DNA from: a virus
DNA: 41,294 nt
Virus genome (UHGV): UHGV-0110231
Reading direction: 5' to 3' (one strand)
Shown here: positions 1 to 40,010 of the stretch, piece after piece
Layout: every line of letters begins with the position of its first letter
Numbering within the stretch: position 1 is the first letter of the stretch
The notes under the pieces: model-generated
The model's database searches: none
Told to the model about the DNA's origin: nothing
What the model saw: the letters and a program-made list of their open reading frames with translations, nothing else
Translations under genes and position numbers: made by a program

Positions 1-53
1 GCGTGGTGTATGACATCAGCGGCAAGCCGCCAGCTACCATTGAGTGGGAATGA
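1..53 (+). CDS. guaA: 3' end of GMP synthase gene (partial; C-terminus ...VVYDISGKPPATIEWE*)
   Basis: In-frame translation ends in the conserved GuaA C-terminal motif PPATIEWE; stop TGA at 51-53 lies inside the att core; gene neighbourhood (yfgI/H/G/F on the other side of the prophage) fits. Confidence 0.6.
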   Translation, partial: VVYDISGKPPATIEWE

Positions 54-55
54 TT
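39..55. repeat. attL core (ATTGAGTGGGAATGATT)
   Basis: Exact 17-bp direct repeat with 38830..38846; overlaps the guaA stop codon. Confidence 0.75.
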
Positions 56-101
56 AACAGCTAACTCATAGCAAATCATTCCTATTCAGATGTCAACTCA
101 A

Positions 102-131
102 CCCTCTGTTTTTGCAGAGGGTTTTTGTTTT
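102..131 (+). terminator. Rho-independent terminator, phage-supplied copy that replaces the native guaA terminator
   Basis: Hairpin CCCTCTG-tttttg-CAGAGGG followed by a T-run; near-duplicate of the host terminator at 38873..38898. Confidence 0.55.
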
Positions 132-188
132 TATGTATTCATTTCTATTCACTCTACACCATATTTTTCGGCGGTACAGGTGACGGTA

Positions 189-203
189 TTACCTTAAAGG
201 TAT
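189..203. promoter_or_regulatory. Operator-like palindrome TTACC-N5-GGTAt upstream of int
   Basis: TTACCTTAAAGGTAT; member of the recurrent TTACC-N5-GGTAA family. Confidence 0.4.
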
Positions 204-245
204 ACTCTCATACCGTCATGAAAATGGTTTCTATATGGGTGAATT

Positions 246-1496
246 GTGCTTACCGATACAAAATTAAAAAACCTCAAGCCGCAGGACAAACTGTACAAGG
301 TCTCCGATCGTGACGGGCTGTATGTAGCTGTGCTTACGTCAGGCACGGTCTCGTTTCGCTATGACTACCGTATCAACGGTCGCCGCGAAACACTGGTAAT
401 CGGGCAGTATGGGCGTGACGGTATCAGCCTGGCAGAAGCGCGAGAAGAACTGATTGCTGCAAAGAAGCTGCTTAAAGCAGGCCAGTCACCGGCTGCGGCT
501 AAACGTGACGGTATCAAAAAGATTCGTGGTGCCGAGACGTTTGCGGTACATACCGACAGTTATATGAAACACGTCATCCTGGCTGACAGTACCCGCGCAA
601 TGAAGCAGGCGGTGATCGACCGTGACATACTTCCGGTTCTTGGCAACAAAATGATGGCTGAAATTACCACATCGATGGTTCGTGATTTGTGTGACCGGAT
701 TGTCGAACGCGGTGGTCGGGCAACAGCAGTACAGGCCAGGGAGATCATCAGCAGCGTATACCGTCACGCCAATGACCGTGGTCATGGTTTGTTTAATCCT
801 GCCGCTGACATTAAACCTTCGTCTATCGCCATATTTAAACCACGAGAGCGAACACTGACACCAGAAGAAATTGGCCTGTTCTTCCGCACGCTGGATGCCA
901 TTGGTGCTATGGGCACTATGAAAATGGCTTTAAAGCTGGTGCTTATCACTATGGTTCGTAAAGGCGAATTCACCAATGCAACGTGGGATGAAATAGATTT
1001 TAAAAAATGGACATGGACAATTCCTTCAGACCGCATGAAGGGAAGCCGGGCGCACGTTATTTACCTGCCTAAACAGGCACAGGATATATTGGTTGGGTTG
1101 CAGATGTGCGCTGGTGGAAGTGAATATCTGGTTCCTGGTCGTTACAATTTCCGGAAGCCATTATCTAATGCCGCGCTGAACTCTCTGATCGACAGAACGG
1201 TGAAAATAATAAATGAAGATGGTGAGCGTATTCAGGACTTCACCGTACACGATATGCGCCGTACAGCAAGTACGTTGTTGCATGAGGCTGGTTATCCTTC
1301 AGACTGGATTGAAAAGGCTCTGGCACATGAGCAGAAAGGTGTGCGCGCCGTATATAACAAAGCGGAATACGCCAGACAGCGCGCCTACATGTTGCAGCAG
1401 TGGGCCGATATGATTGATTCCTGGATTGACGGGGAGCATACGGATCTGATTCCGTTCTCCCCGTCTAAGTTTGAGAAGTTGATGGCGGGGGAATAA
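246..1496 (+). CDS. int: Tyrosine integrase, P4/CP4-57 type
   Basis: 416 aa; N-terminus LTDTKLKNLKP...GLYVAV...FRYDYRINGRRETLVIGQY matches the P4-type arm-binding domain; GTG start; sits next to attL. Confidence 0.85.
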   Translation: MLTDTKLKNLKPQDKLYKVSDRDGLYVAVLTSGTVSFRYDYRINGRRETLVIGQYGRDGISLAEAREELIAAKKLLKAGQSPAAAKRDGIKKIRGAETFAVHTDSYMKHVILADSTRAMKQAVIDRDILPVLGNKMMAEITTSMVRDLCDRIVERGGRATAVQAREIISSVYRHANDRGHGLFNPAADIKPSSIAIFKPRERTLTPEEIGLFFRTLDAIGAMGTMKMALKLVLITMVRKGEFTNATWDEIDFKKWTWTIPSDRMKGSRAHVIYLPKQAQDILVGLQMCAGGSEYLVPGRYNFRKPLSNAALNSLIDRTVKIINEDGERIQDFTVHDMRRTASTLLHEAGYPSDWIEKALAHEQKGVRAVYNKAEYARQRAYMLQQWADMIDSWIDGEHTDLIPFSPSKFEKLMAGE

Positions 1497-1499
1497 CGT

Positions 1500-1694
1500 T
1501 TAATAGTTCTGCTGATTTTCTTCCATCTCTGCTTCTGCTGCCAGTGATTCAATTTTATCTGCGAATATTGCTGACAGTGTTGCAAATTCAGCATCAGTGA
1601 CAGCGGGAACTGGAACAAACCTGATCCCGCTGTGTGCAAGCATGTTTGCAGTTTCAAGACATTTCCTTAAATCTGCTGGTGATGCCCTGTTCAT
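1500..1694 (-). CDS. Hypothetical small protein (64 aa; the longer ORF to 1814 overlaps the methyltransferase)
   Basis: Internal ATG gives a 4-nt ATGA overlap with the upstream methyltransferase stop, suggesting translational coupling. Confidence 0.4.
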   Translation of the reverse strand: MNRASPADLRKCLETANMLAHSGIRFVPVPAVTDAEFATLSAIFADKIESLAAEAEMEENQQNY

Positions 1695-2341
1695 GCTGCA
1701 CGCTCCCGCCCCTGGTTGTCTGTTGGTGACAGCAGAGCATTGCTGAATGCATTTGTTAATCCGCCAATATCCAACGCGTATCCTGGGTGTAGTTGCACTG
1801 CCGGGTCTTCGCACTGATTACCCCAAACATCGAAACCATGAGACGACTGGCGGGCGAACAGTTCAATGCGAGAAACATCGCCTAACAATTGCACAAGTTT
1901 TTCACGAACGACATCTGGTTTTCTTGAATGCTCAAGCCGCGGTGCGGTAAATGACTGAACGATCCCTGCATTAATGCGCGGAGGTAGTTTTCCCTTTACT
2001 GCAAACAGGCAATCTTCACTATTGGCGCGAGTCATGTGTCCCATACCCATAACCAGTTTATCTGGTTGTCGACTACCACATTTTATCCATGTGAAGCCCT
2101 TCATGGTCATCAGACGGAATCCCCAGGCTTCAACAACTTTTAGAGCTTCGAGTGGTTGTGTTGGCACCCACCACATGGCCAACAGACAGTTTTCATCGGC
2201 CAAATCCCACACAGGAAGGCGGCAGATATCCATCACACTCATAACCGGATATTTAAAACCGGCACCGCGATTACCATCTGCGGCTTTGTCCCGGTATACC
2301 CAGGGTGGATCTGCATAGATTAGTGTGTATTTCTTAGTCAT
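1691..2341 (-). CDS. MT-A70-family N6-adenine DNA methyltransferase (orphan)
   Basis: 216 aa; catalytic DPPW motif within TLIYADPPWVY; no adjacent restriction endonuclease. Confidence 0.75.
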   Translation of the reverse strand: MTKKYTLIYADPPWVYRDKAADGNRGAGFKYPVMSVMDICRLPVWDLADENCLLAMWWVPTQPLEALKVVEAWGFRLMTMKGFTWIKCGSRQPDKLVMGMGHMTRANSEDCLFAVKGKLPPRINAGIVQSFTAPRLEHSRKPDVVREKLVQLLGDVSRIELFARQSSHGFDVWGNQCEDPAVQLHPGYALDIGGLTNAFSNALLSPTDNQGRERAA

Positions 2342-2633
2342 AAACCACCCCGCAACATCCTATACCGCTATAGTCGCCACGGCGAAGGCCGTTACCTTTT
2401 GTGATACATTGGTCCCTGCGAACCGCGATCCTTGCACGCTCAACATCACCAGAAGCAACATCCATACACTGAAGCCAAAGGTGAGCGGCAATGCGGAACT
2501 GTCCTTTTTTCTCTCTTTCAATTGCGCGTTTTTCGATCTCTATCGCCGCAGGAGTAACGGCGACAATCTTTGACGGACTGCGCATTGAAACCTTGTTCAT
2601 GTGATATTTTTCAAGTCGGCTTAACTTTCTCAC
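2334..2633 (-). CDS. Hypothetical protein
   Basis: 99-aa ORF in the leftward early operon; overlaps the methyltransferase start by 8 nt. Confidence 0.4.
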   Translation of the reverse strand: MRKLSRLEKYHMNKVSMRSPSKIVAVTPAAIEIEKRAIEREKKGQFRIAAHLWLQCMDVASGDVERARIAVRRDQCITKGNGLRRGDYSGIGCCGVVYD

Positions 2634-2742
2634 TTAATCCAACCCTCTCTGAAAATTAATGCCAGCAGATAAAGCCATGCTGAAACAGAGGACAGGAATA
2701 AGTACCATCCTGACCATTTGCTCCAGTTCCTTAGCAGCACAC

Positions 2743-2991
2743 TCATGCAGCGTTGCTCACAGGACGATATACACGTTGCTGAACAGGAGGCTTTTTACCC
2801 TGAAACTCTGCCGGGCTTGCTGCCTGACGTTCATCAAGCCAACGCTCAACTTCGTCACGGTTCCATGCGCAGCGTTTGTCAGTGATATACCAGCGTTTAG
2901 GAAATTCACCTGCGCGCTCCATACGGTCGATAGTGCTCCATGACAGTGGCACCACCGCCAGGAGTTCCTTCTTACCTAATGCACCTTTCAT
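2743..2991 (-). CDS. xis: AlpA-family excisionase / DNA-binding regulator
   Basis: 82 aa; LLAVVPLSWSTIDRMERAGEFPKRWYI...RDEVERWL matches the AlpA/Xis HTH pattern. Confidence 0.65.
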   Translation of the reverse strand: MKGALGKKELLAVVPLSWSTIDRMERAGEFPKRWYITDKRCAWNRDEVERWLDERQAASPAEFQGKKPPVQQRVYRPVSNAA

Positions 2992-3040
2992 AAATACCTC
3001 TCTTGGTTGCAGTGCGGCGCGCGTGGCGCCGCGGTGGTGG

Positions 3041-3922
3041 TTACATAGATGTTTCGTTTAATTCTTCCCGACGAACGCTGTAAACGTCGGTGGCTTTTGC
3101 CAGCAGTTCGTCATCATCTGAAAGTTTTTGTGCAATGTATTTGTAAGCCTTATCCAGTTCGGAGACAGTGCTGTAATTCATCGCTGCGCTGGTAAAGGCC
3201 ATCAGCATTTCTTCTGGATCACGGCTATCCGCTTTACGCGTTTGCTCATCATGCTTTTTCACTGGTTTAGCGTTGATCAGACTGTTCATTCCCGCAGCAG
3301 TAGTCGTTTGCGGAGTAATGTCTCGCTCAACGCGCGGTGCCGTTTCCTGTAATTCGTCAGGGGTGTAAACACCGAGAAGCACATCAGGAGCGTGCAGGCG
3401 AGCCCATCGTTTCGTGCAAAGATAGGCAAGCTGCTGGCGCGGATCCTGTTCCCACAATGGAGAGTTACGCACTCCGGCTTGCGCCATACTGATGGTAAGC
3501 TCACGGGGTTCTGCTTCTCCTTTAAGAACTGCTGACACAGTTACCGTCAGATTCGGTGATTTATCTGTTTTGCCGTTAACATTCGACCAGTCACCGCTCC
3601 AGCGATAATTCAGGCGTGTCGCCAGCAGGCTGGAAGAGGATACGACCGCGTTTACCAACTGTGCTTCGTAGCCTAACGTTCCGTTTACCACATGCGTTTT
3701 CTGCGCCACGGCGAAAGGGTTCATTCCCCACTGTGCCGCCTGCATGGTCACCGCCAGACAATCGGCAGGTTTGCCTTCAAGATGTTTCGGTACAGTCGCT
3801 TTGCTTTGTGACATCAACTCCGCGAAACGCACCAGTTGATTCATGCCCTCCGGGCTGAAGATTGCCGCAGCAGTACCTACAGTTGCGCCTGGTTGTGATG
3901 TGATTGCGATATCATTGCTCAT
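3041..3922 (-). CDS. RecT/Bet-like single-strand annealing recombinase
   Basis: 293 aa; sits immediately downstream of, and coupled to, the exonuclease gene; RecT-like central region. Confidence 0.6.
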   Translation of the reverse strand: MSNDIAITSQPGATVGTAAAIFSPEGMNQLVRFAELMSQSKATVPKHLEGKPADCLAVTMQAAQWGMNPFAVAQKTHVVNGTLGYEAQLVNAVVSSSSLLATRLNYRWSGDWSNVNGKTDKSPNLTVTVSAVLKGEAEPRELTISMAQAGVRNSPLWEQDPRQQLAYLCTKRWARLHAPDVLLGVYTPDELQETAPRVERDITPQTTTAAGMNSLINAKPVKKHDEQTRKADSRDPEEMLMAFTSAAMNYSTVSELDKAYKYIAQKLSDDDELLAKATDVYSVRREELNETSM

Positions 3923-4740
3923 ACGTACATATCCTGTTTACGTGCCCAGTCAGGGCGTTTAATAATTTCCACGCCGCCCCATTCATCATTGATGCGGCAT
4001 TCGTGATAGGTATTCAGATCCCGGCGGAACAGAGCGTGCCCGGCATCGACATCCGGCGCATCCAGCTCGAACACGCGTACCGGATACCGACCACAATCAA
4101 TGCTTTCGCTCACGGCAAGAAAGAAAAAACCATGCGACTGACCAGTAACCCTCATCGCTCCTTCGCGGTACATTGCGTCCTGCACGTGGTAGCGGAATTC
4201 CTCGATGTGGCGTGCAAAACGATCCATATCTGCAACCTTTTTCACGTCGACGATCACGTTGTGCTCGTTCAGCCATTTGTCTGGACGAATTCGGCACAAC
4301 TCACCAGTCTCTTCATCATTCCAGTACATTGATGCTTCGCAGTAACCAGGTGCTTCCAGCATCCAGCGTGCCGCCGGGTGAGCCATTGCGCTATCACGCA
4401 TCAGCTCCAGTTTCCGCCACTGCTCGGCATCAAGTACCGTAATCCCCATATCCGCTACATCACGAAGAAATGCTTCTTCGTCAGCTTTACCTTGTTTCGT
4501 CCGACGATCGAACTTCGGTGAAACAATGAAGCGTTTGTCGAATTCTCCAGGCTCCAGAAGCAGACAGTGCAATGCGGTTCCCATATCCAGTGCAGACTTT
4601 TTCTCTTCGTCTTCTGGTGCTGCCTGAACCCATTTAAGAAGCGCCGGATTCTTGGCAACCATGTCCAGTTGCGACTTACTCACGCCGTCACCGGCGTGGT
4701 AGTCTTCGTTGCTGATGTCGAAATAAATTCCCGGTTTCAT
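3919..4740 (-). CDS. PD-(D/E)XK recombination exonuclease (YqaJ-like)
   Basis: 273 aa; YqaJ-like N-terminus (FDISNEDYHAGDGVSKSQL) and D...E.K signature (IVDVKK); 4-nt overlap with the annealase gene. Confidence 0.65.
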   Translation of the reverse strand: MKPGIYFDISNEDYHAGDGVSKSQLDMVAKNPALLKWVQAAPEDEEKKSALDMGTALHCLLLEPGEFDKRFIVSPKFDRRTKQGKADEEAFLRDVADMGITVLDAEQWRKLELMRDSAMAHPAARWMLEAPGYCEASMYWNDEETGELCRIRPDKWLNEHNVIVDVKKVADMDRFARHIEEFRYHVQDAMYREGAMRVTGQSHGFFFLAVSESIDCGRYPVRVFELDAPDVDAGHALFRRDLNTYHECRINDEWGGVEIIKRPDWARKQDMYV

Positions 4741-5036
4741 GCCGCTTCCCTCTGCCCATCAATCCGATCCGCCAGATCCCAGCGGGCGATAATTGCCATT
4801 GCCTCGCGCCGGTAGGCATCCATAAGTTCTTCGAACTCAGGGCTGTCTTTAGCTGCCTCCAGCACTTCCTGGCGAACTCCTTTGCCTGTTACAGCGTCAA
4901 AAGTTGAGGCCAGTTGATGAAGCCGGATGCTCTCGATCAGTTCAACTTGTCGGTCATATAGCTGTTCTGACAGGCGGTAGTCCTTGTCGAATGCCAGCAT
5001 GATTTTTTGAAGATTTTTCTGCTGATTAACGTTCAT
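4737..5036 (-). CDS. Hypothetical early protein
   Basis: ORF with GGGAGGG Shine-Dalgarno before the ATG at 5036; coupled to the exonuclease gene. Confidence 0.45.
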   Translation of the reverse strand: MNVNQQKNLQKIMLAFDKDYRLSEQLYDRQVELIESIRLHQLASTFDAVTGKGVRQEVLEAAKDSPEFEELMDAYRREAMAIIARWDLADRIDGQREAA

Positions 5037-5210: not shown

Positions 5211-5225
5211 TTACCGTTGAGGTAA
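5211..5225. promoter_or_regulatory. Operator-like palindrome (putative PL region)
   Basis: TTACCGTTGAGGTAA; nested in a larger inverted repeat TTACCTC...GAGGTAA. Confidence 0.5.
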
Positions 5226-5272
5226 TAATTATGCGTATTTGGTTTGATGTCAATAGATATGAGTTGAAAAAA

Positions 5273-5287
5273 TTACCTATTAGGTAA
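5273..5287. promoter_or_regulatory. Operator-like palindrome (putative PL region)
   Basis: TTACCTATTAGGTAA, a perfect TTACC-N5-GGTAA. Confidence 0.5.
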
Positions 5288-5984: not shown

Positions 5985-5999
5985 TTACCCAACAGGTAA
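5985..5999. promoter_or_regulatory. Operator site 1 in the repressor/cro intergenic region
   Basis: TTACCCAACAGGTAA. Confidence 0.55.
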
Positions 6000-6369: not shown

Positions 6370-6384
6370 TTACCTCAAAGGTAA
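6370..6384. promoter_or_regulatory. Operator-like palindrome downstream of the terminator
   Basis: TTACCTCAAAGGTAA. Confidence 0.5.
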
Positions 6385-8315: not shown

Positions 8316-8330
8316 TTACCTTAGAGGTAA
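8316..8330. promoter_or_regulatory. Operator-like palindrome
   Basis: TTACCTTAGAGGTAA. Confidence 0.5.
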
Positions 8331-8377: not shown

Positions 8378-8392
8378 TTACCTAAGGGGTAA
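8378..8392. promoter_or_regulatory. Operator-like palindrome, 4 nt before the ATG at 8396
   Basis: TTACCTAAGGGGTAA. Confidence 0.5.
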
Positions 8393-11509: not shown

Positions 11510-11840
11510 ATCCCCCGCAGAACGCAAAGCCGCGCAGCGCGCTCGGCAGTCAGCCGCCGGTGAGCGCAAAATTGAACTGGTGCTGGATAAGCAGGAGCAG
11601 GAAATGCTGGAGCGTAACTGTGCCGCCCGTCGCCCTGGTCGTGCGCCGTATGAAATGAGCGAATACATCGCGTTACTGATCCGCCAGGATGATGCACGCG
11701 TGCGCGGGCGTATAAAATCGATCAGCAGAAAACGTTGCGGTAAGTGCGGCGAGAGAGTTCCAGTTAATTCATGCCCGTGTAATGGTGACTCGCAATGCTG
11801 GGTGACTAAAGGCTGGCATGAAACGAAATTAATAGTGTGA
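11493..11840 (+). CDS. Basic protein with C-terminal Cys cluster (zinc ribbon); candidate late-gene regulator
   Basis: 115 aa; CGKCGERVPVNSCPCNGDSQC; last gene before a terminator and the terminase genes. Confidence 0.45.
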   Translation: MRFVAKSPAERKAAQRARQSAAGERKIELVLDKQEQEMLERNCAARRPGRAPYEMSEYIALLIRQDDARVRGRIKSISRKRCGKCGERVPVNSCPCNGDSQCWVTKGWHETKLIV

Positions 11841-11848
11841 CATGTCAC
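11837..11848. repeat. Perfect 12-bp palindrome GTGACATGTCAC (copy 1)
   Basis: Overlaps the stop codon of the 11493..11840 gene. Confidence 0.7.
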
Positions 11849-11889
11849 GAGTAGATTATGCATGATGAATTTGATGGATTTTGAATACT

Positions 11890-14077: not shown

Positions 14078-14101
14078 AGCCAGCTCATCGGCTGGCTGTT
14101 T
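14078..14101 (+). terminator. Stem-loop terminator after the terminase large subunit gene
   Basis: AGCCAGC-tcatcg-GCTGGCT followed by GTTTGT. Confidence 0.4.
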
Positions 14102-14113
14102 GTGACATGTCAC
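14102..14113. repeat. Perfect 12-bp palindrome GTGACATGTCAC (copy 2)
   Basis: Between the convergent terminase and gp49-like genes. Confidence 0.7.
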
Positions 14114-14117
14114 GGTG

Positions 14118-14672: not shown

Positions 14673-14749
14673 TGGCGTGGCATGCAGGATTCGAACCTGC
14701 GACCAACCGCTTAGAAGGCGGTTGCTCTGTCCAACTGAGCTAATGCCAC
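14673..14749 (-). tRNA. tRNA-Arg (anticodon UCU), phage-encoded
   Basis: 77-nt cloverleaf read by hand: acceptor GTGGCAT/ATGCCAC, D-arm GCTC..GAGC, anticodon stem ACCGC/GCGGT with loop CTTCTAA, T-arm GCAGG-TTCGAAT-CCTGC, discriminator G, CCA encoded. Confidence 0.85.
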
Positions 14750-15071: not shown

Positions 15072-15086
15072 TTACCTGAAAGGTAA
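15072..15086. promoter_or_regulatory. Operator-like palindrome upstream of the structural operon
   Basis: TTACCTGAAAGGTAA. Confidence 0.5.
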
Positions 15087-31350: not shown

Positions 31351-31647
31351 ATGCAAGCTATAGGATTCATTGTTTATATCGTCGTTGGTCTTTTTCAGTT
31401 GGCAGTAATTATGGCTGGGCTTGAATCATGGTTTGGATTGCACTGGATAATTGCAGCCCCCATTGCTTTCATCGTTAGCTATATTCCATTTGTTGGAGCG
31501 ATTGTTGGTATGGTTGGCGCTGTGGATGTATGGCGGTGGGAGTGGTGGCAGGCTGGCCTTCTCTTCTTTGGTGGGATCATCTTTGCTATTGTCTGCGGTG
31601 GAATGTCATCATTTTTCGAATGGCTATCATTCAGAAAAAGAACGTGA
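31351..31647 (+). CDS. Polytopic inner-membrane protein; candidate superinfection-exclusion factor
   Basis: 98 aa, roughly three hydrophobic helices; sits where P22 carries sieA. Confidence 0.5.
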   Translation: MQAIGFIVYIVVGLFQLAVIMAGLESWFGLHWIIAAPIAFIVSYIPFVGAIVGMVGAVDVWRWEWWQAGLLFFGGIIFAIVCGGMSSFFEWLSFRKRT

Positions 31648-31655
31648 CATGTCAC
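31644..31655. repeat. Perfect 12-bp palindrome GTGACATGTCAC (copy 3)
   Basis: Overlaps the stop codon of the 31351..31647 gene, in the same register as copy 1. Confidence 0.7.
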
Positions 31656-31679
31656 AGGCCGCTTTCGCGGCCTTTAAAT

Positions 31680-31976: not shown

Positions 31977-32023
31977 GCAAATAATTTGTTTGCTATCCAG
32001 CACGTTTTGCTAATCACCTGAAA

Positions 32024-32038
32024 GGTAATATCTGTTCG
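32024..32038. promoter_or_regulatory. Operator-like palindrome in the divergent region before the tailspike
   Basis: TCACCTGAAAGGTAA. Confidence 0.45.
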
Positions 32039-32132: not shown

Positions 32133-34922
32133 ATGACGGTCTCAACCGTAGTTGACCATAACGATTACACCGGGAACGGCGTTACGACATCCTTCCCGTA
32201 TACCTTCCGCATTTTCAACAAATCTGACCTGGTTGTTCAGGTGGTTGACCTTGATGAAAATATCGCTGTGCTAGCTCTTGATACTGATTACACAGTTACC
32301 GGGGCTGGAGGGTATAACGGTGGTAATGTAATTCTGTCGAAGGCGTTGGCTAACGGTTATCAGATTTCTATATCACGAGAACTCCCGGTTACGCAGGAAA
32401 CTGATTTGCGTAATCAGGGTAAGTTCTTTGCTGAGGTGCATGAAGACGCGTTCGATAAACTGACGATGCTGATACAGCAGGCGTACAGTGTGTTCCGCCT
32501 GGCGCTTCGCAAGCCGTCCAGCATCGCGAATTGGTACGATGCATTGGGAAACTACATCCGTAATGTGCGTGACCCTCGAGATCCTCAGGATGCGGCCACA
32601 AAGCATTACGTCGACTCATTAAGTGCAGGAAATACATCACATACTGATTTGTTATTTAGTAGAACATTGCGTACCGCAGAGAGCATCCCGCAACTTCCAT
32701 CTGTGGAGTCGCGAAAAAATAAAATTGTTGGCATGGATAACAACGGTAATCCCATAATGTTATTGCCTGAATCAGGAAGCGCGGCTGATGTCATGATTGA
32801 ACTGGCAAAAAATAGCGGAGCTGGGCTGATAGGATACAATGATACAGAGGAATACCCAGATGGAACGGTTGGCGATATTCTCAATAGACGACCTTTCGTT
32901 CAACTTTCTGATTTCGGCGTTACTGGATCTGGCGATGAAACAGAGAAGGTTAGATCGGCACATGCCAAAGCCAATGCTCGAGGCGTTCCCGTTATCTATG
33001 ATGTCTCTGAAGTTACTCTTGATGCAAAAGCAAACATAGAAGTCAGAACATCAGTAGACTTTAATGGTTGCATTATCCATCCTGTATTTTATGGAACGCC
33101 ATCTTACGACACAACGCCGACTTATTCGTTGCTAGGTAAAGCGTCTGAAAACGTGACATCAAAACTGTCACAGTCTGGTATGCGTAAGGGTGAAATGGCC
33201 CTTTACGGCGGTATGGCATCTTATAGTCGTGGAACATTCTGGATGGATACACGAGACCCTTTATGTAAACGTAGTCTCTCCGATGTGACCCCAAACCACT
33301 ATAAGACAACGATAAACCGCATCACGAAGTATGGTGGTTTACAGTATCCACTTGAGCATGATTTTACTGCATCACCTTCTCCAGAGGCCTACTTCAGACC
33401 TGATGAAGACTTCTGGTTGAAAGTTGAAGGCGCTCACATTGATACGTCTGGTATGACGTCAGGTGTTGTTTTTAAAGCATTAAGGTCCCAAGTTAAGTTT
33501 TCAGACATAACTGTACGGCAAGACGACAATGTTAAGATGACAAACATCCGGCAAATATTTTATCTCGGTGATGGTGTTAGCCAGATAAGATTTAATGACG
33601 TATCAGCAGAGGCTATGTCGAGCTATAACGCGAACAATGGCACATATCTGTTAAGCAGCAATTATGCGGCAGAGATTATTCTAGATAATGTTAATGCTGT
33701 GCAAGGTTGGGGTGCTCTCGGTCTTCATAAAGTGAGAGATTTGACAGTTACTAATTCAACTTTAAATCGGGTAGATGGACATTATCATATTTTCGACATA
33801 GACGTTAATCACACTAAGTTACACGAGTTCGGTGTACTCATTGGTGCTGGTGGAGGATACCTTCGTGTAACAAATTGCACTAAGTACCTCGGCACTCAAA
33901 CAGACCTAACTGGGACGAGCGGGACTGCTATAGATAAGACACGCCGAAGTGTCATCTATATGCGAGACGATTACGGTAGCTATTTTGACGGGGATATCAC
34001 CGTCGACAACGTAGTGTATAAAATGTCCAGAGAATTATCATTTGCTTCTGCATCCGAGGAGTGGCCAGGTATTCTGTCCTGTGTGTCGTTCAATGCCGGG
34101 GTTAGTACAACAAGTTCAACAACTCCTGATTATGGCTATACAGCACCAGTTCCGTGGGGGACAACTGTCACTGTTAAAAACATTACGGTAGAAGTGTTTA
34201 GGGATTCAATACTGGATTCATGGCTCACTTTTGTAGCTGTTAACTACAACGGGAATTACATACTTCCCAGCGTGTTAATGCCAGCAAGTATCACTGTGAA
34301 AGATATTAAATATAGCAAACCTCCGAGGACTGCGAAAATAGCACCCGTCATTCTCCCGGATTTACGTGGAACAACTGCGGCAGTTGCCTCTGCTAATAAT
34401 CGGGCTTTCTTTAACTCAATAATTAATATTGAGAATATTCAAAGTGGTTTTGCAAAAGACCGTCAAATCGGAGCTCTGAATACTGGGGTCCAGACACTTA
34501 TGTGCATGTATACTCAGACAGAGATATCTAACTTCCCTACTCCGTCTGTTGTTCCAGAAATAAATGTGCGTAACTTTTATGGCTTTTCTGGTAAGTTTGA
34601 CATTCCAGGAAGACTAAGCCTAACGGACTGCTTCGTCATTTCTCTGACCGACTCATCTGGTGGCAGAAATGCAGATTCTTTTATAAAAGTATCCGGAGGG
34701 TTTGTCTACGCGTTGCCTAGTTCTTCTGGTGGTTCTTCATCACAGCTACCAAGAGCCGAGTGGAATTCTGTTAGGTTTATTAAAAGCCCTGTCTCTCCAG
34801 ACCTAACTGATTACGACTCAATACAGGGTTGCACATTCGAAAATGGCAATCCACCGATAGGGATAACAGTGGCACTTGCGTTTTCAGGAAGTGTTGGTGA
34901 CGCTGCTAATAGATTGCAATAA
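32133..34922 (+). CDS. Tailspike / receptor-binding protein
   Basis: 929 aa; N-terminal particle-binding domain (MTVSTVVDHNDYTGNGVTTSFPYTFRIF...) followed by a long Ser/Thr/Asn/Gly-rich beta-helix-like region. Confidence 0.75.
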   Translation: MTVSTVVDHNDYTGNGVTTSFPYTFRIFNKSDLVVQVVDLDENIAVLALDTDYTVTGAGGYNGGNVILSKALANGYQISISRELPVTQETDLRNQGKFFAEVHEDAFDKLTMLIQQAYSVFRLALRKPSSIANWYDALGNYIRNVRDPRDPQDAATKHYVDSLSAGNTSHTDLLFSRTLRTAESIPQLPSVESRKNKIVGMDNNGNPIMLLPESGSAADVMIELAKNSGAGLIGYNDTEEYPDGTVGDILNRRPFVQLSDFGVTGSGDETEKVRSAHAKANARGVPVIYDVSEVTLDAKANIEVRTSVDFNGCIIHPVFYGTPSYDTTPTYSLLGKASENVTSKLSQSGMRKGEMALYGGMASYSRGTFWMDTRDPLCKRSLSDVTPNHYKTTINRITKYGGLQYPLEHDFTASPSPEAYFRPDEDFWLKVEGAHIDTSGMTSGVVFKALRSQVKFSDITVRQDDNVKMTNIRQIFYLGDGVSQIRFNDVSAEAMSSYNANNGTYLLSSNYAAEIILDNVNAVQGWGALGLHKVRDLTVTNSTLNRVDGHYHIFDIDVNHTKLHEFGVLIGAGGGYLRVTNCTKYLGTQTDLTGTSGTAIDKTRRSVIYMRDDYGSYFDGDITVDNVVYKMSRELSFASASEEWPGILSCVSFNAGVSTTSSTTPDYGYTAPVPWGTTVTVKNITVEVFRDSILDSWLTFVAVNYNGNYILPSVLMPASITVKDIKYSKPPRTAKIAPVILPDLRGTTAAVASANNRAFFNSIINIENIQSGFAKDRQIGALNTGVQTLMCMYTQTEISNFPTPSVVPEINVRNFYGFSGKFDIPGRLSLTDCFVISLTDSSGGRNADSFIKVSGGFVYALPSSSGGSSSQLPRAEWNSVRFIKSPVSPDLTDYDSIQGCTFENGNPPIGITVALAFSGSVGDAANRLQ

Positions 34923-34927
34923 AAAAT

Positions 34928-34953
34928 TGGCTGGGAATTTTAATCCCCAGCCA
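34928..34953. terminator. Bidirectional terminator between the convergent tailspike and acyltransferase genes
   Basis: TGGCTGGG-aattttaat-CCCAGCCA hairpin with an A-run on one side and T-rich sequence on the other. Confidence 0.55.
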
Positions 34954-34958
34954 GCATA

Positions 34959-36761
34959 TTAATTTATTTTTGATAAAAGATACTTACCTACTATTTTAGA
35001 ACCATCACTAGAAAGATGCCCACCATCAAAATAAACCGGTTTATCATTATGAATAACCATGCACTTCCCATTCTTGCACAGCTCGTCTTTAGGATTTATT
35101 ATCTTATAAGAGGCAAGCCCATCCCCTGAGTTCTCTATAAATAAATCATCAAGTTTTGTGCTCTTTATATCTACTAAATTTTTGCAGCCATCAAGTATGT
35201 GTCTAACTGGAAGTCTATTTCCATTCATGCAAGAAACAACGTCATAGTTTGGATGTTGGTAATTTCCTATTACATACATTCTTTTATCTTTATTAATAAG
35301 TTGTCGCCACTTGTTTATTTGTGAGAGTATAACATTATTATATGATGACTTACTTACATAATCTCCATGACGACTTATTAATTTATCATTATATCTCTCC
35401 CAGTTATGAGCAAGTATTATAGTGTTTGATTTCGATTTATTTATCTCATTGATTGCTTTTTCATACATCGAATAGCATCCTGATTCTTCTTTAGCATAAT
35501 AATCAGGAAGAATTGGGCATGACACTAACGAAATAAATGTTGCATTTATACCTTCACTGTCAATAAAGTCAATGAATTGCTGTGAGTAGCTATCACCAAC
35601 AAAAATAATGCCATCCTGTTTGCTTGATTCATTCAAATGCAAAATCTTTCCATTTGCCTTACCAAATAGTCTGTGTCCTCCATATGACGTATCCACCTTG
35701 CTACTTATCCTTGATGGAGCACCGGCGTAAAATATTGATGATGATATTAACATCATAAATATATATGAAAACAAAATAATATTTATATTTTTAACTTTAG
35801 ATTCAACTAAATGATGAAGTATTAATGATAAAGTGAAAACAATAAACAAATAAAAAAATAACCCAACCTCAATATTTAACTTTCTGAAAAACACTATGAC
35901 AGGCCAATGCACAAGATAAATCGAATAAGAAATTATTCCTATGTACTGTATTACTCTGTTTCTAAAGAATGAATTTTCGTTCATTCCTGAATGTATTACA
36001 AGCATAGCTCCGACAACAGGCACTATTGCATTTACGCCAGGCCACGCCATCGTGTCATTATAAATAATGAATGATAACAGTATCAATACAACACCAAATA
36101 TCTCTCCAATCCTATTTAATTTTAATTTTTTATTAATCACATAAACTATTGCCCCGCCCATCATTTGCCAGGATCTTCCGGGGAGAGAATAGTATGCAAA
36201 TTTACTATGATTGAATGCTTGATATATAGAAAGCGCAAGCGATAAAACGAATATTGAGTAAATAAGAACAACTCTATTGCTTCTATTTTTTACGAGATAT
36301 AAAAAAATTGGGAATAGTATATAGAATTGCCATTCAACAGAAAGTGACCACGTATGAAGTAGTATTTTGCTTTTTGAGTCCGAATCAAAATACCCACTCT
36401 CAAATGCATACACATAATTTGATATGAATGACATGCTTGATAGCATATGCTTTCCAAGCATTTTGTATGATGTTACATCAAGTGATACAAAACCTATTAT
36501 TGAAGTAAACAAAACAACTGCAATAAGTGCTGGTATAATTCTTTTTACTCTTGATGTGTAAAATTTTTTAAATGAAAAGTTACCATTATCCATCCCATTC
36601 ATTATGATGGAGGTCATAAGATAACCTGATATCACGAAGAAAATATCTACGCCAGCAAATCCACCCGGTAACCACTGCGGATTAAAATGAAAAATCACAA
36701 CAGACATGACTGCTATAGCTCTCAGTCCGTCAATATCCTTTCTGCGTTGAATGGAAGGCAT
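34959..36761 (-). CDS. Membrane acyltransferase-3 (OafA-like) with C-terminal SGNH domain; putative O-antigen acetyltransferase
   Basis: 600 aa; N-terminal acyltransferase-3 motifs (DGLRAIAVMSVVIFHF), multiple TM helices, soluble C-terminal domain; strongly AT-rich compared with the rest of the prophage. Confidence 0.75.
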   Translation of the reverse strand: MPSIQRRKDIDGLRAIAVMSVVIFHFNPQWLPGGFAGVDIFFVISGYLMTSIIMNGMDNGNFSFKKFYTSRVKRIIPALIAVVLFTSIIGFVSLDVTSYKMLGKHMLSSMSFISNYVYAFESGYFDSDSKSKILLHTWSLSVEWQFYILFPIFLYLVKNRSNRVVLIYSIFVLSLALSIYQAFNHSKFAYYSLPGRSWQMMGGAIVYVINKKLKLNRIGEIFGVVLILLSFIIYNDTMAWPGVNAIVPVVGAMLVIHSGMNENSFFRNRVIQYIGIISYSIYLVHWPVIVFFRKLNIEVGLFFYLFIVFTLSLILHHLVESKVKNINIILFSYIFMMLISSSIFYAGAPSRISSKVDTSYGGHRLFGKANGKILHLNESSKQDGIIFVGDSYSQQFIDFIDSEGINATFISLVSCPILPDYYAKEESGCYSMYEKAINEINKSKSNTIILAHNWERYNDKLISRHGDYVSKSSYNNVILSQINKWRQLINKDKRMYVIGNYQHPNYDVVSCMNGNRLPVRHILDGCKNLVDIKSTKLDDLFIENSGDGLASYKIINPKDELCKNGKCMVIHNDKPVYFDGGHLSSDGSKIVGKYLLSKIN

Positions 36762-36801
36762 TCTTACCTCTAAACATTGATTATTATTTTATAAGATAAT
36801 A

Positions 36802-38846: not shown

Positions 38847-38872
38847 TGACCCTGCACTATGAATGAACAAAA

Positions 38873-38898
38873 CCCTCTGTTACTACAGAGGGTTTTTT
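38873..38898 (+). terminator. Native host terminator of guaA, displaced by the insertion
   Basis: CCCTCTG-ttacta-CAGAGGG followed by TTTTTT. Confidence 0.6.
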
Positions 38899-39491: not shown

Positions 39492-40010
39492 TTAGCTCTT
39501 TTCAGGACATTTGGTATTTGGCTGAATACGCGTTTCGTTATACGTCGTGGTAATAACAACGGCTAAACCTGTCGTAAACTGGCACTCTTTACCCACCTGG
39601 GTGGAGGTATACACTTTGGTGCCTTCCTTATATGTTAAAGAAACACCTTCCACTAAGGTTTTATCATTCACCATAGAACCCGCTGCTGCGCCAACAGCTC
39701 CGCCGCCAACTGCACCTGCTGTCGTTCCGGAATTGCTGCCAGACCCGACGTTGTGGCCGATAACACCGCCAGCGACAGCGCCAATAAGCGCGCCGAAGGC
39801 TTGTGCGTTCCGTTTATTTTGGGCGTTGTCTACGGCAACTTTTGCGGGAAGAATGGAAATAATATTAACGGTTTTAGTTTCTTGTTTGGTATTCAGTTGA
39901 TCGGTTTGATAAACATCGGCGGCATGATCGTCAGCATTTGACTGGCATCCTGCCAGAGTGAATGACGCTAACATTGCCACAGGCAGAAGACATTTTTTAA
40001 ATTTCATCAC
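39492..40010 (-). CDS. yfgH: Outer-membrane lipoprotein with Gly-zipper domain, YfgH-like
   Basis: 172 aa; lipobox LAGC; glycine-zipper stretch GALIGAVAGGVIG. Confidence 0.55.
   Translation of the reverse strand: MMKFKKCLLPVAMLASFTLAGCQSNADDHAADVYQTDQLNTKQETKTVNIISILPAKVAVDNAQNKRNAQAFGALIGAVAGGVIGHNVGSGSNSGTTAGAVGGGAVGAAAGSMVNDKTLVEGVSLTYKEGTKVYTSTQVGKECQFTTGLAVVITTTYNETRIQPNTKCPEKS

Follow-up and report, generated by a model that had tools for sequence, protein, structure and literature searches.

The gene at 1691-2341 on the minus strand of the window (the whole stretch of 41,294 nucleotides analysed here, virus genome UHGV-0110231) encodes a 216-aa MT-A70 family N6-adenine methyltransferase, hereafter MTase, and we consider it probable, at roughly 55%, that this enzyme works alone, methylates DNA at GATC as Dam does, and is produced on induction. 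The gene is intact, belongs to the MT-A70 family and is linked to an enzyme of Stx2a phages; it has no restriction nuclease beside it, and in sibling prophages it is replaced by Dam genes.

By its sequence the window represents a prophage of the phiV10/epsilon15 type with 96-98% identity to deposited phages, and the MTase gene is already known, being annotated in these relatives. The same gene in the same operon is found in phiV10 (gp33, YP_512288.1), TL-2011b, phiv142-3, ZX5 and epsilon15-type phages (genus Uetakevirus). Compared with phiV10-type phages, positions 39-5000 of the window are 96-98% identical in DNA and MTase is 96-98% identical in protein sequence, and the order DUF1382, MTase, PerC, 38-aa protein and AlpA as well as the overlaps between these genes are the same. 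In these relatives MTase is annotated as ‘putative adenine methylase / DNA methyltransferase’ and shows no substantive difference from the window copy; experiments on the phiV10-type copies were not found in the searchable literature. The module is present in 537 of 5,426 complete E. coli genomes (about one in ten), and the same core enzyme also occurs in many unrelated phages, among them Stx2a phages, Vibrio phages and lambdoid prophages.

The methyltransferase and its leftward operon

MTase (N-terminal sequence MTKKYTLIYADPPWVY) matches the Pfam family MT-A70 (PF05063) with an E-value of 3.8e-22 and 79.5 bits at a cutoff of 23.9, and since its residues 5-176 align to profile positions 1-172 of 172 the match is full-length. 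The assignment is supported by PHROG 359 ‘DNA methyltransferase’ (1.3e-119), by the PADLOC model MTase_II (5.9e-77), by the alignment with the phage PA8 enzyme described below and by an AlphaFold2 model (pTM 0.77), while NCBIfam has no model for it. The Dam family profile (PF05869) gave no match to MTase, and MT-A70 is the only family reported by Pfam at E <= 0.01. The catalytic motif IV, read from the sequence as DPPW, lies at residues 11-14 (2300-2311, minus strand), near the N-terminus and before the remaining Rossmann core, which is the permuted order of class-beta MT-A70 enzymes. Among 30 homologues P12 and W14 do not vary at all and D11 and P13 hardly vary, and besides DPPW the homologue set conserves 37 invariant core positions. 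Thus the first-pass annotation was right in naming an MT-A70 adenine methyltransferase with a DPPW motif.

Among solved structures the best matches by sequence and fold are METTL3-METTL14 and MTA1c at about 20% identity. METTL3 and Tetrahymena MTA1 are the top PDB fold matches of the model (E ~1e-14 to 1e-13, TM ~0.65), with Foldseek giving 5il1_A at E 2.7e-14 and TM 0.65-0.69 and 9u9e_A at 2e-13. The catalytic fold and DPPW are common to MTase, the eukaryotic METTL3-METTL14 (RNA m6A) and the ciliate MTA1c (DNA 6mA), and because the closest structures thus include both an RNA (METTL3) and a DNA (MTA1) methyltransferase the fold does not decide the substrate. Both complexes are heterodimers with an inactive paralogue and have nucleic-acid-binding partners, whereas the window encodes no paralogue of MTase, which makes a homodimer more likely. 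According to Pfam and AlphaFold2 the protein consists of a catalytic domain of about 190 residues without an additional DNA-reading domain. It is followed by a C-terminal tail (residues 188-216; 1691-1780, minus strand), of which residues 203-216 have a pLDDT below 50. A separate ORF of 54 aa, found downstream of the MTase in a Kluyvera prophage, matches residues ~192-214 over part of its length (E 6e-7), and by its sequence the tail looks like a fusion scar.

The span 1500-2633 holds three genes. Upstream of MTase lies the gene for a PerC-family small protein at 2334-2633 (minus strand; 99 aa if read from GTG 2633, with ATG 2600 and ATG 2585 as alternative starts), which matches Pfam PerC with 6e-07 and, over its whole length, PHROG 868 with 5.7e-62; a weak match to the ANR family stays under the cutoff. 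Downstream, at 1500-1694 (minus strand), a DUF1382 small protein (Pfam 8e-30) of 64 aa is encoded, the true start of which is ATG 1694, as the Pfam match begins at residue 41 of the longer ORF and phiV10 annotates the identical 195-nt CDS. Further upstream follow a 38-aa predicted membrane protein (2630-2746, minus strand; PHROG 17484, 2.1e-25) and an AlpA-family excisionase or regulator (2743-2991, minus strand; Pfam Phage_AlpA 3.1e-05, PHROG 66 2e-16). The tyrosine integrase at 246-1496 (plus strand; Pfam Arm-DNA-bind_3, Phage_int_M and Phage_integrase) is convergent with the operon end, and the two stop codons are 3 nt apart.

From ~5191 to 1500 every gene is on the minus strand and downstream of a sigma-70-like promoter at 5225-5253 (minus strand; TTGACA-17-AATTAT), which was found by a consensus scan with 10 of 12 positions and is a candidate start of the leftward early transcript. 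No terminator was predicted among these leftward genes. The gene string from 1500 to ~5191 therefore fits the name ‘early-left operon’ given to it in the first-pass annotation as far as strand, promoter and terminators are concerned, with transcription itself as the inferred part. In a lysogen the MTase gene probably sits behind a repressed early promoter.

The same annotation described MTase as translationally coupled to its small flanking ORFs, and the overlaps are indeed real: the PerC stop TAA at 2336-2334 lies within MTase codons 2-3, giving an overlap of 8 nt, and the ATGA at 1694-1691 is common to the MTase stop and the DUF1382 start. The 38-aa ORF and PerC likewise overlap by GTGA and AlpA and the 38-aa ORF by ATGA. 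However, such overlaps are uninformative, as overlaps of 1, 4 or 8 nt with the adjacent genes are seen for nearly every MTase copy in 34 related loci, among which the families of these adjacent genes vary widely. Across 40 species-level loci and the phage loci we counted about 19 upstream and 24 downstream neighbour clusters around MTase, of which only PerC recurs. Because overlapping stops and starts are nearly universal while the neighbours differ, no partner can be deduced from them.

PADLOC gave no match on the seven neighbours of MTase, and Pfam scans of ORFs sampled across the rest of the prophage found no restriction-type nuclease domain, in agreement with the earlier statement that no restriction endonuclease candidate is nearby. 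The sole nuclease-like genes found in the window are a RecE-like exonuclease adjoining RecT and a DUF1064 ORF 6 kb off on the opposite strand. We call MTase an ‘orphan’ because the window offers no candidate for a cognate restriction endonuclease of a type II restriction-modification system. A degraded restriction-modification pair was considered as well and rejected, since this locus has no upstream gene of nuclease type. In some sibling prophages a weak PDDEXK_5-like, DndB/DGQHR or HNH-NUMOD4 gene is found directly upstream of MTase. We also rejected a second methyltransferase at 39492-40010, which according to Pfam is a glycine-zipper lipoprotein and apparently a host gene past the right prophage end; its homologue is labelled ‘DNA methyltransferase’ in RefSeq TL-2011b.

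Relatives in Stx2a phages and Dam genes in sibling prophages

Two enzymes of the MT-A70 family, M.EcoPA8orf6770P from phage PA8 and M.EcoGV from the Stx2a phage of E. coli O104:H4, are the studied relatives of MTase. MTase and M.EcoPA8orf6770P share 154 of 187 residues (82%) in a gapless alignment of residues 1-187. Both have the same variable loop KCGxRQxDKLVMGMG and the same AGI(V/I)QSF segment, in place of which many other relatives have HKTN..GNSAI and ASICQH. At 76% nucleotide and 82% amino acid identity the two genes have saturated synonymous sites and a dN/dS of about 0.05, which points to strong purifying selection on the MTase gene. The gene arrangement is similar too, as the gene of the Stx2a-phage enzyme also lies close to the integrase end of its prophage; its start overlaps the ORF upstream of it, and downstream it is followed by a DUF1382 gene, the product of which is 49% identical to the DUF1382 protein here. 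In contrast, PA8 has PNB-2 (143 aa) at the upstream position and phage 06-3462 has a 76-aa ORF there, and the PerC-family protein found here is similar to neither. The C-terminal tails of the two methyltransferases are unrelated, and the host phages are lambdoid (Sepvirinae) in one case and a Uetakevirus in the other.

M.EcoGV has been described as highly similar to the PA8 enzyme (PMC10810198). When overproduced it methylates GATC in vivo, as stated there with reference to Fang 2012, and it is listed as GATC in Table 3 of PMC6602927, a table that gives specificities only if they were determined by PacBio. For M.EcoPA8orf6770P together with its partner PNB-2, a more than 13-fold preference for 16S rRNA has been reported, while without PNB-2 the purified His-tagged enzyme consumed SAM at close to background level when given DNA from dam- strains (PMC10810198).

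In sibling prophages with the layout Exo-RecT-AlpA-PerC...Int, exactly the slot of MTase is occupied by a PF05869 Dam-family gene (L046, L048, L049) or, in L047, by a 664-aa fusion of a C5-methylase and Dam; some of the Dam-bearing siblings adjoin guaA. Between the protein of L048 and the product of VT2-Sakai dam the identity is 48.6%, and M.EcoVT2Dam, a homologue of the latter, has GATC as its target (PMC6602927). Phage Dam proteins of PF05869 (VT2-Sa/VT2-Sakai Dam, T1-type Dam) are likewise orphan adenine methyltransferases and act on GATC. They differ from MTase in Pfam family, so that the likeness is one of position and, by the reported target, of function, not one of membership.

Substrate, partner and possible function

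From these data we propose that MTase is a functional N6-adenine methyltransferase (MT-A70, class beta) whose gene forms a cassette in the leftward early operon, at the end nearest the integrase. Upon induction or infection the leftward early transcript would be made and MTase translated in line with its neighbours. The protein probably dimerises like class-beta methyltransferases, and it would flip the target adenine into the DPPW pocket and transfer the methyl group from S-adenosylmethionine. Its most probable substrate would be double-stranded DNA at GATC, the site of host Dam. As host Dam may be unable to keep fast-replicating phage DNA fully methylated, MTase would ensure that the phage DNA leaves fully modified, which could protect it from nucleases cutting unmethylated GATC; GATC methylation may also aid any Dam-dependent phage step. 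Both an anti-restriction and a regulatory role are live possibilities. The GATC reading is favoured by the reports on M.EcoGV, by the core and loop identity of MTase and the PA8 enzyme, by the Dam genes in the sibling slot and by the lack of a nuclease. Against it stand the near-background SAM use of the PA8 enzyme alone and the preference of its PNB-2 complex for 16S rRNA, the origin of the M.EcoGV result, as cited, from overproduction, a fold found in an RNA methyltransferase as well, the possibility that enzymes 82% identical differ in specificity, and a tail unlike that of the Stx2a form. GATC is not markedly avoided in the window: it occurs 146 times (3.5 per kb), at 0.73 of the number expected from a Markov model, which resembles the values of other 4-mer palindromes and is unremarkable as a hint at the target. 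An enzyme specific for GATC would add no new motif in a dam+ lysogen, and with the MTase gene repressed a comparison of lysogen and cured strain would likewise yield ‘no new motif’.

The most serious alternative follows from the work on the Stx2a phages, in which 16S rRNA methylation by M.EcoPA8orf6770P with PNB-2 reportedly raises spontaneous prophage induction (PMC10810198); the first-pass annotation had left out this published alternative of 16S rRNA and a partner. MTase together with a partner would then methylate host 16S rRNA and thereby increase spontaneous prophage induction, with DNA methylation as a side activity. The catalytic core that is 82% identical to an enzyme with reported rRNA activity (PMC10810198), a fold as near to METTL3 as to any DNA methyltransferase, and the fact that MT-A70 enzymes of solved structure act in complexes with partner subunits (PMC7544214) speak for it. 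We nevertheless consider it rather unlikely, as the specificity subunit PNB-2 is absent from the window. Searches with tblastn for PNB-1 or PNB-2 across the whole window gave no match, BLASTP produced no alignment of PNB-2 with the upstream PerC ORF, and comparison of the PerC profile with PNB-2 (hhalign) returned a probability of 0.1%. In MTase the unrelated tail takes the place of the ~27 C-terminal residues through which, as the authors suggest, the STEC form binds PNB-2 (PMC10810198), and the sibling slot is filled by Dam-type and C5 DNA methyltransferases. In addition, the modified rRNA base was never identified for the PA8 enzyme and the published co-expression construct also carried the DUF1382 gene (PMC10810198), and from the published forward primer we infer that the PA8 enzyme assayed alone was tagged at its N-terminus, some 10 residues away from DPPW. 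Far less credible is an inactive relic that merely travels with the integrase module: no activity of homologues was detected in native STEC methylomes (PMC6602927) and IS-disrupted copies are known, for example in the Stx2a phage PA2 (PMC10810198), but the intact motifs, the full-length profile match, the low dN/dS relative to the PA8 gene and the presence of the module in 542 E. coli records at 95-99% identity all argue against decay.

A partner might instead be sought in the 99-aa PerC-family protein, which would bind MTase and set its substrate, a role like that of PNB-2 with an unrelated sequence. Besides the 8-nt overlap, this idea can draw on four loci otherwise without detectable synteny to this operon, in which a PerC-like ORF lies directly upstream of MTase. 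In this second neighbourhood the replication genes O and P are found upstream of the pair (checked in L023, L027 and L032) and RusA, Ant and DUF968 downstream (checked in L032), and in L023 and L024 the PerC domain is preceded by some 90 additional residues. PerC is also found at most ~1.2 kb upstream of MTase in eight further sibling prophages, and there are rare calls of PerC-methyltransferase fusions (P0001, P0002). However, in those eight siblings another gene is inserted between the two, each fusion call comes from a single contig and is accounted for by one nucleotide lost from a T run or by a deletion, and the upstream neighbour is highly variable across the MTase family. As siblings with a PF05869 Dam gene also retain PerC, PerC does not depend on the MT-A70 enzyme, and we regard such a partnership as improbable. 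It would be a similarly long shot to see in PerC and MT-A70 MTase a mobile two-gene module of two phage neighbourhoods, with PerC as the subunit that targets or activates the enzyme in the manner of PNB-2, though unrelated to it in sequence, and thus a partner-directed RNA or DNA methyltransferase tuning induction and not a plain Dam-like anti-restriction enzyme. If true, the poorly understood PerC/Pch regulator family would gain a biochemical partner.

The first-pass annotation had further suggested the repeated palindromes as the target of MTase, with epigenetic control of phage promoters as the consequence, and this proposal finds no support. The palindromes are real, lie far above chance and are in several cases located at promoter-like regions: TTACCT-N3-AGGTAA, read as intergenic, has 9 sites in the window against 0.05 expected, and TGTGACATGTCACA has 3 against 0.18. 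Yet two of them (5211-5225 and 5273-5287) bracket the leftward promoter, a placement that fits repressor operators, which the TTACCT-N3-AGGTAA repeats look like. A 15-bp site is implausible for a catalytic domain of this size lacking a DNA-reading domain, the same core enzyme is present in many unrelated phages such as the Stx2a phages of another genus (82% identity), and the palindromes contain no GATC, the reported specificity of M.EcoGV as the closest studied relative (cited in PMC10810198 and listed in PMC6602927). Methylation of either palindrome by MTase is therefore very improbable.

As it stands, MTase is a common and correctly recognised prophage gene of little significance. Its modest value lies in the question raised in 2023, whether phage MT-A70 enzymes are GATC DNA methyltransferases or partner-directed 16S rRNA enzymes setting the rate of prophage induction. 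The phiV10-type MTase is a natural control for it, having the same catalytic core as the Stx2a-phage enzyme without PNB-2 and with Dam genes in the sibling slot, and thus bears on whether the rRNA activity is a trait of the enzyme family or of the Stx2a-phage complex only.

Prophage layout

The window represents a phiV10/epsilon15-type prophage (genus Uetakevirus), and its stretch 39-5000 shows 96-98% identity to the Escherichia phages phiv142-3, ZX5, TL-2011b and phiV10. An att-like 32-nt direct repeat with a terminator-like hairpin (AACCCTCTG...CAGAGGGTT) occurs at 95-126 and 38866-38897, and its copies are probably attL and attR of a 38.8-kb prophage; guaA adjoins the sibling prophages L046, L048, L051 and L052. 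Near the left end the integrase gene (246-1496, +) converges with a minus-strand string of five overlapping genes just inside the prophage, which encode an AlpA-family excisionase or regulator (2743-2991), a 38-aa membrane protein (2630-2746), a PerC-family protein (2334-2633), the MT-A70 methyltransferase (1691-2341) and a DUF1382 protein (1500-1694). RecT (3041-3922) and a RecE-like exonuclease (3919-4740) are encoded upstream of the string. As a sigma-70-like promoter is predicted at 5253-5225 (-), after the terminator of the repressor gene, and no terminator is predicted from there down to position 1500, the term "early-left operon" used in the first-pass annotation suits the layout, from which we infer leftward transcription of these genes.

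Between recT and the AlpA gene, which are 49 nt apart, lies a perfect 7-bp GC-only hairpin (GCGGCGC-CACGC-GCGCCGC, 3014-3032 (-)) with no T run after it. A tRNA-Arg gene (anticodon TCT) is located within the prophage at 14673-14749 (-), and the stretch 33000-36800 has a GC content of only 31-36% and is nearly devoid of GATC sites. Inside this stretch a 600-aa acyltransferase-3 plus SGNH protein is encoded (34959-36761 (-)), likely an O-antigen acetyltransferase cargo of foreign origin. A second candidate "DNA methyltransferase" at 39492-40010 (-), so labelled for its homologue in RefSeq TL-2011b (L005 41915-42430), was rejected: Pfam assigns it to a glycine-zipper lipoprotein, and the label looks like an annotation error. 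Together with the adjoining DUF5384 gene it apparently belongs to the host sequence beyond the prophage.

The methyltransferase gene and its neighbours

The span 1500-2633 contains three genes rather than one, with the same boundaries in phiV10's own annotation. The 216-aa product of the middle gene matches MT-A70 across the entire Pfam profile (E 3.8e-22) and carries DPPW at residues 11-14, confirming the adenine methyltransferase observed before. The overlaps with small flanking ORFs are likewise present in the sequence: the PerC stop lies within codons 2-3 of the methyltransferase gene (8-nt overlap), and a single ATGA holds both the stop of that gene and the start of DUF1382. The orphan status of the methyltransferase held as well, with no restriction nuclease candidate found: PADLOC recognised the methyltransferase and none of seven neighbours, and Pfam scans of ORFs sampled across the remaining prophage revealed recombination-type nucleases only. 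Compared with the Stx2a-phage homologue dN/dS is about 0.05 with saturated synonymous sites, and the gene is under strong purifying selection.

This is an ordinary gene that was known before. Among 5,426 complete E. coli genomes, 537 contain the 1.7-kb module at ≥80% coverage; RefSeq names its products MT-A70 family methyltransferase, PerC family transcriptional regulator and DUF1382 protein, and deposited phage genomes already carry the label putative adenine methylase. The family at large is big, with 12,240 cluster representatives reaching E ≤0.001 and 263 reaching 1e-30. An AlphaFold2 model built from 30 homologues reached a mean pLDDT of 75 and a pTM of 0.77, with low confidence for residues 19-28 and 95-102 and the C-terminal tail. 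Its top PDB matches, with similar scores, were the METTL3 catalytic domain (RNA m6A) and Tetrahymena MTA1 (DNA 6mA), and thus the modelled fold confirms the family and leaves the substrate undecided.

In a survey of 40 species-level loci from Enterobacterales and beyond, together with phage loci, almost all copies overlap an upstream ORF by 1, 4 or 8 nt and a 4-nt overlap with a downstream ORF is frequent. Upstream neighbours were PerC, NinB, DUF1317, DndB/DGQHR, a weak PD-(D/E)XK match, HNH-NUMOD4, YbcO, an IstB-like ATPase, a C5 methylase and MazG; on the downstream side were DUF1382, ORFs that we read from their sequences as RusA-like and LexA-like, and numerous other types. Because the neighbours are so varied, the overlaps reflect tight phage gene packing and not a specific partnership. 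PerC does recur, being immediately upstream in the window and in four lambdoid prophages from Dryocola, Buttiauxella, Lonsdalea and Acerihabitans (L023 2567-3570, L024 2546-3570, L027 2637-3600 and L032 2756-3567 for the pair) otherwise without detectable synteny to the window operon. There the pair lies in the early-right region, unlike the neighbourhood in the window; it has replication genes on its upstream side (confirmed with Pfam in L023, L027 and L032) and RusA, Ant and DUF968 on its downstream side (confirmed in L032). The PerC domain is preceded by roughly 90 additional residues in L023 and L024. Among sibling Uetakevirus-like prophages, eight carry PerC up to about 1.2 kb upstream of the methyltransferase with a variable gene in between. 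Such variable ORFs, ending at the methyltransferase start in related prophages (L003 and L014 1937-3004, L010 2417-2995, L013 2492-2998, L012 2513-3004), are of the DndB/DGQHR type, weak PD-(D/E)XK (PDDEXK_5) matches or an HNH-NUMOD4 homing-type nuclease. They occupy the slot between PerC and methyltransferase in L003, L010, L013 and L014, while L012 has no PerC match; in the window this slot is empty. We regard the recurrence of PerC as a lead only.

Repeated palindromes

The repeated palindromes had been suggested as the methyltransferase target. TTACCT-N3-AGGTAA with at most one mismatch occurs nine times versus 0.05 expected by chance (189-203, 5211-5225, 5273-5287, 5985-5999, 6370-6384, 8316-8330, 8378-8392, 15072-15086 and 32014-32028). 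The sites appear to be intergenic, two of them flank the promoter-like site 5253-5225 (-), and they are probably operators or other regulator binding sites. The near-perfect 14-bp palindrome TGTGACATGTCAC(A/G) has three copies versus 0.18 expected (11836-11849, 14101-14114 and 31643-31656), by position beside presumed terminase genes and after ORF 31351-31647. Neither palindrome contains GATC, the TTACCT sites resemble regulator sites, and the enzyme, which occurs in many unrelated phages, consists of a catalytic domain alone. We see no support for the palindromes as its target, and overall the interpretation in the first-pass annotation is partly supported.

DNA or 16S rRNA as substrate

The closest functional comparison is M.EcoPA8orf6770P of the Stx2a phage PA8, which is 82% identical to the window enzyme over the catalytic core (residues 1-187, gap-free) and shares its form of the most variable loop; many other relatives have a different form there. 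M.EcoPA8orf6770P is reported to increase spontaneous induction and virulence of the Stx2a prophage (Gong, Chakraborty and Koudelka, PMC10810198). By itself it is reportedly almost inactive in vitro, DNA from dam- strains included; the gene upstream encodes PNB-2, with which it assembles 1:1 into a complex whose preferred substrate is 16S rRNA (PMC10810198). A partner-directed 16S rRNA methylation is the main rival reading; it is less likely here, as PNB-2 is absent and Dam-type genes replace MT-A70 in sibling prophages. The primers and terminator sequence published in PMC10810198 led us to PNB-2 in PA8, a 143-aa ORF with a stop that overlaps the start of the methyltransferase gene. A search of the whole window turned up no homologue of PNB-1 or PNB-2, and similarity between PNB-2 and the window PerC-family protein was undetectable by BLASTP and profile comparison. 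That PerC serves as an alternative partner subunit is more doubtful still. The reverse primer for the "PNB-2 plus methyltransferase" plasmid of PMC10810198 ends at the DUF1382 stop codon (L002 3781-3799; L004 4368-4580), so the construct carried DUF1382 too, which may have a role in the reported complex. The Stx2a form also differs in its C-terminus, which is unrelated to the last 29 residues of the window enzyme. This tail (1691-1780 (-)), predicted with low confidence by AlphaFold2, looks like a gene-fusion scar, since residues ~192-214 match part of a separate 54-aa ORF (L009 3591-3755, E 6e-7) that a Kluyvera prophage carries downstream of its methyltransferase gene.

The sibling prophages share the Exo-RecT-AlpA-PerC...Int layout, and some are integrated beside guaA. 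Their methyltransferase slot is a site of non-orthologous replacement, holding a PF05869 Dam-family gene (L046 4104-4655, L048 3261-3812, L049 4819-5373) or a 664-aa fusion of C5 cytosine methylase and Dam (L047 3445-5439), with MT-A70 retained in other siblings. With the VT2-Sakai dam product, whose homologue M.EcoVT2Dam targets GATC (PMC6602927), the Dam-type protein shares 48.6% identity; thus the gene is replaced in situ by DNA methyltransferases unrelated to it, one or more of which are GATC-type. Furthermore, M.EcoGV of the E. coli O104:H4 Stx2a phage, highly similar to the PA8 enzyme (PMC10810198), led to GATC methylation in vivo when overproduced, according to Fang et al. 2012 as cited in PMC10810198 and PMC6602927. 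Taken together, the slot replacements and the M.EcoGV report favour a Dam-like role on DNA over the other readings. GATC occurs 146 times in the window and is not markedly avoided.

With a probability of roughly 0.55, the gene would encode an MT-A70 enzyme that methylates adenine in DNA on its own, probably specifically at GATC, and is produced from the early leftward transcript. It is probably silent in lysogeny, and a GATC-specific enzyme would in any case add no motif in a dam+ lysogen.
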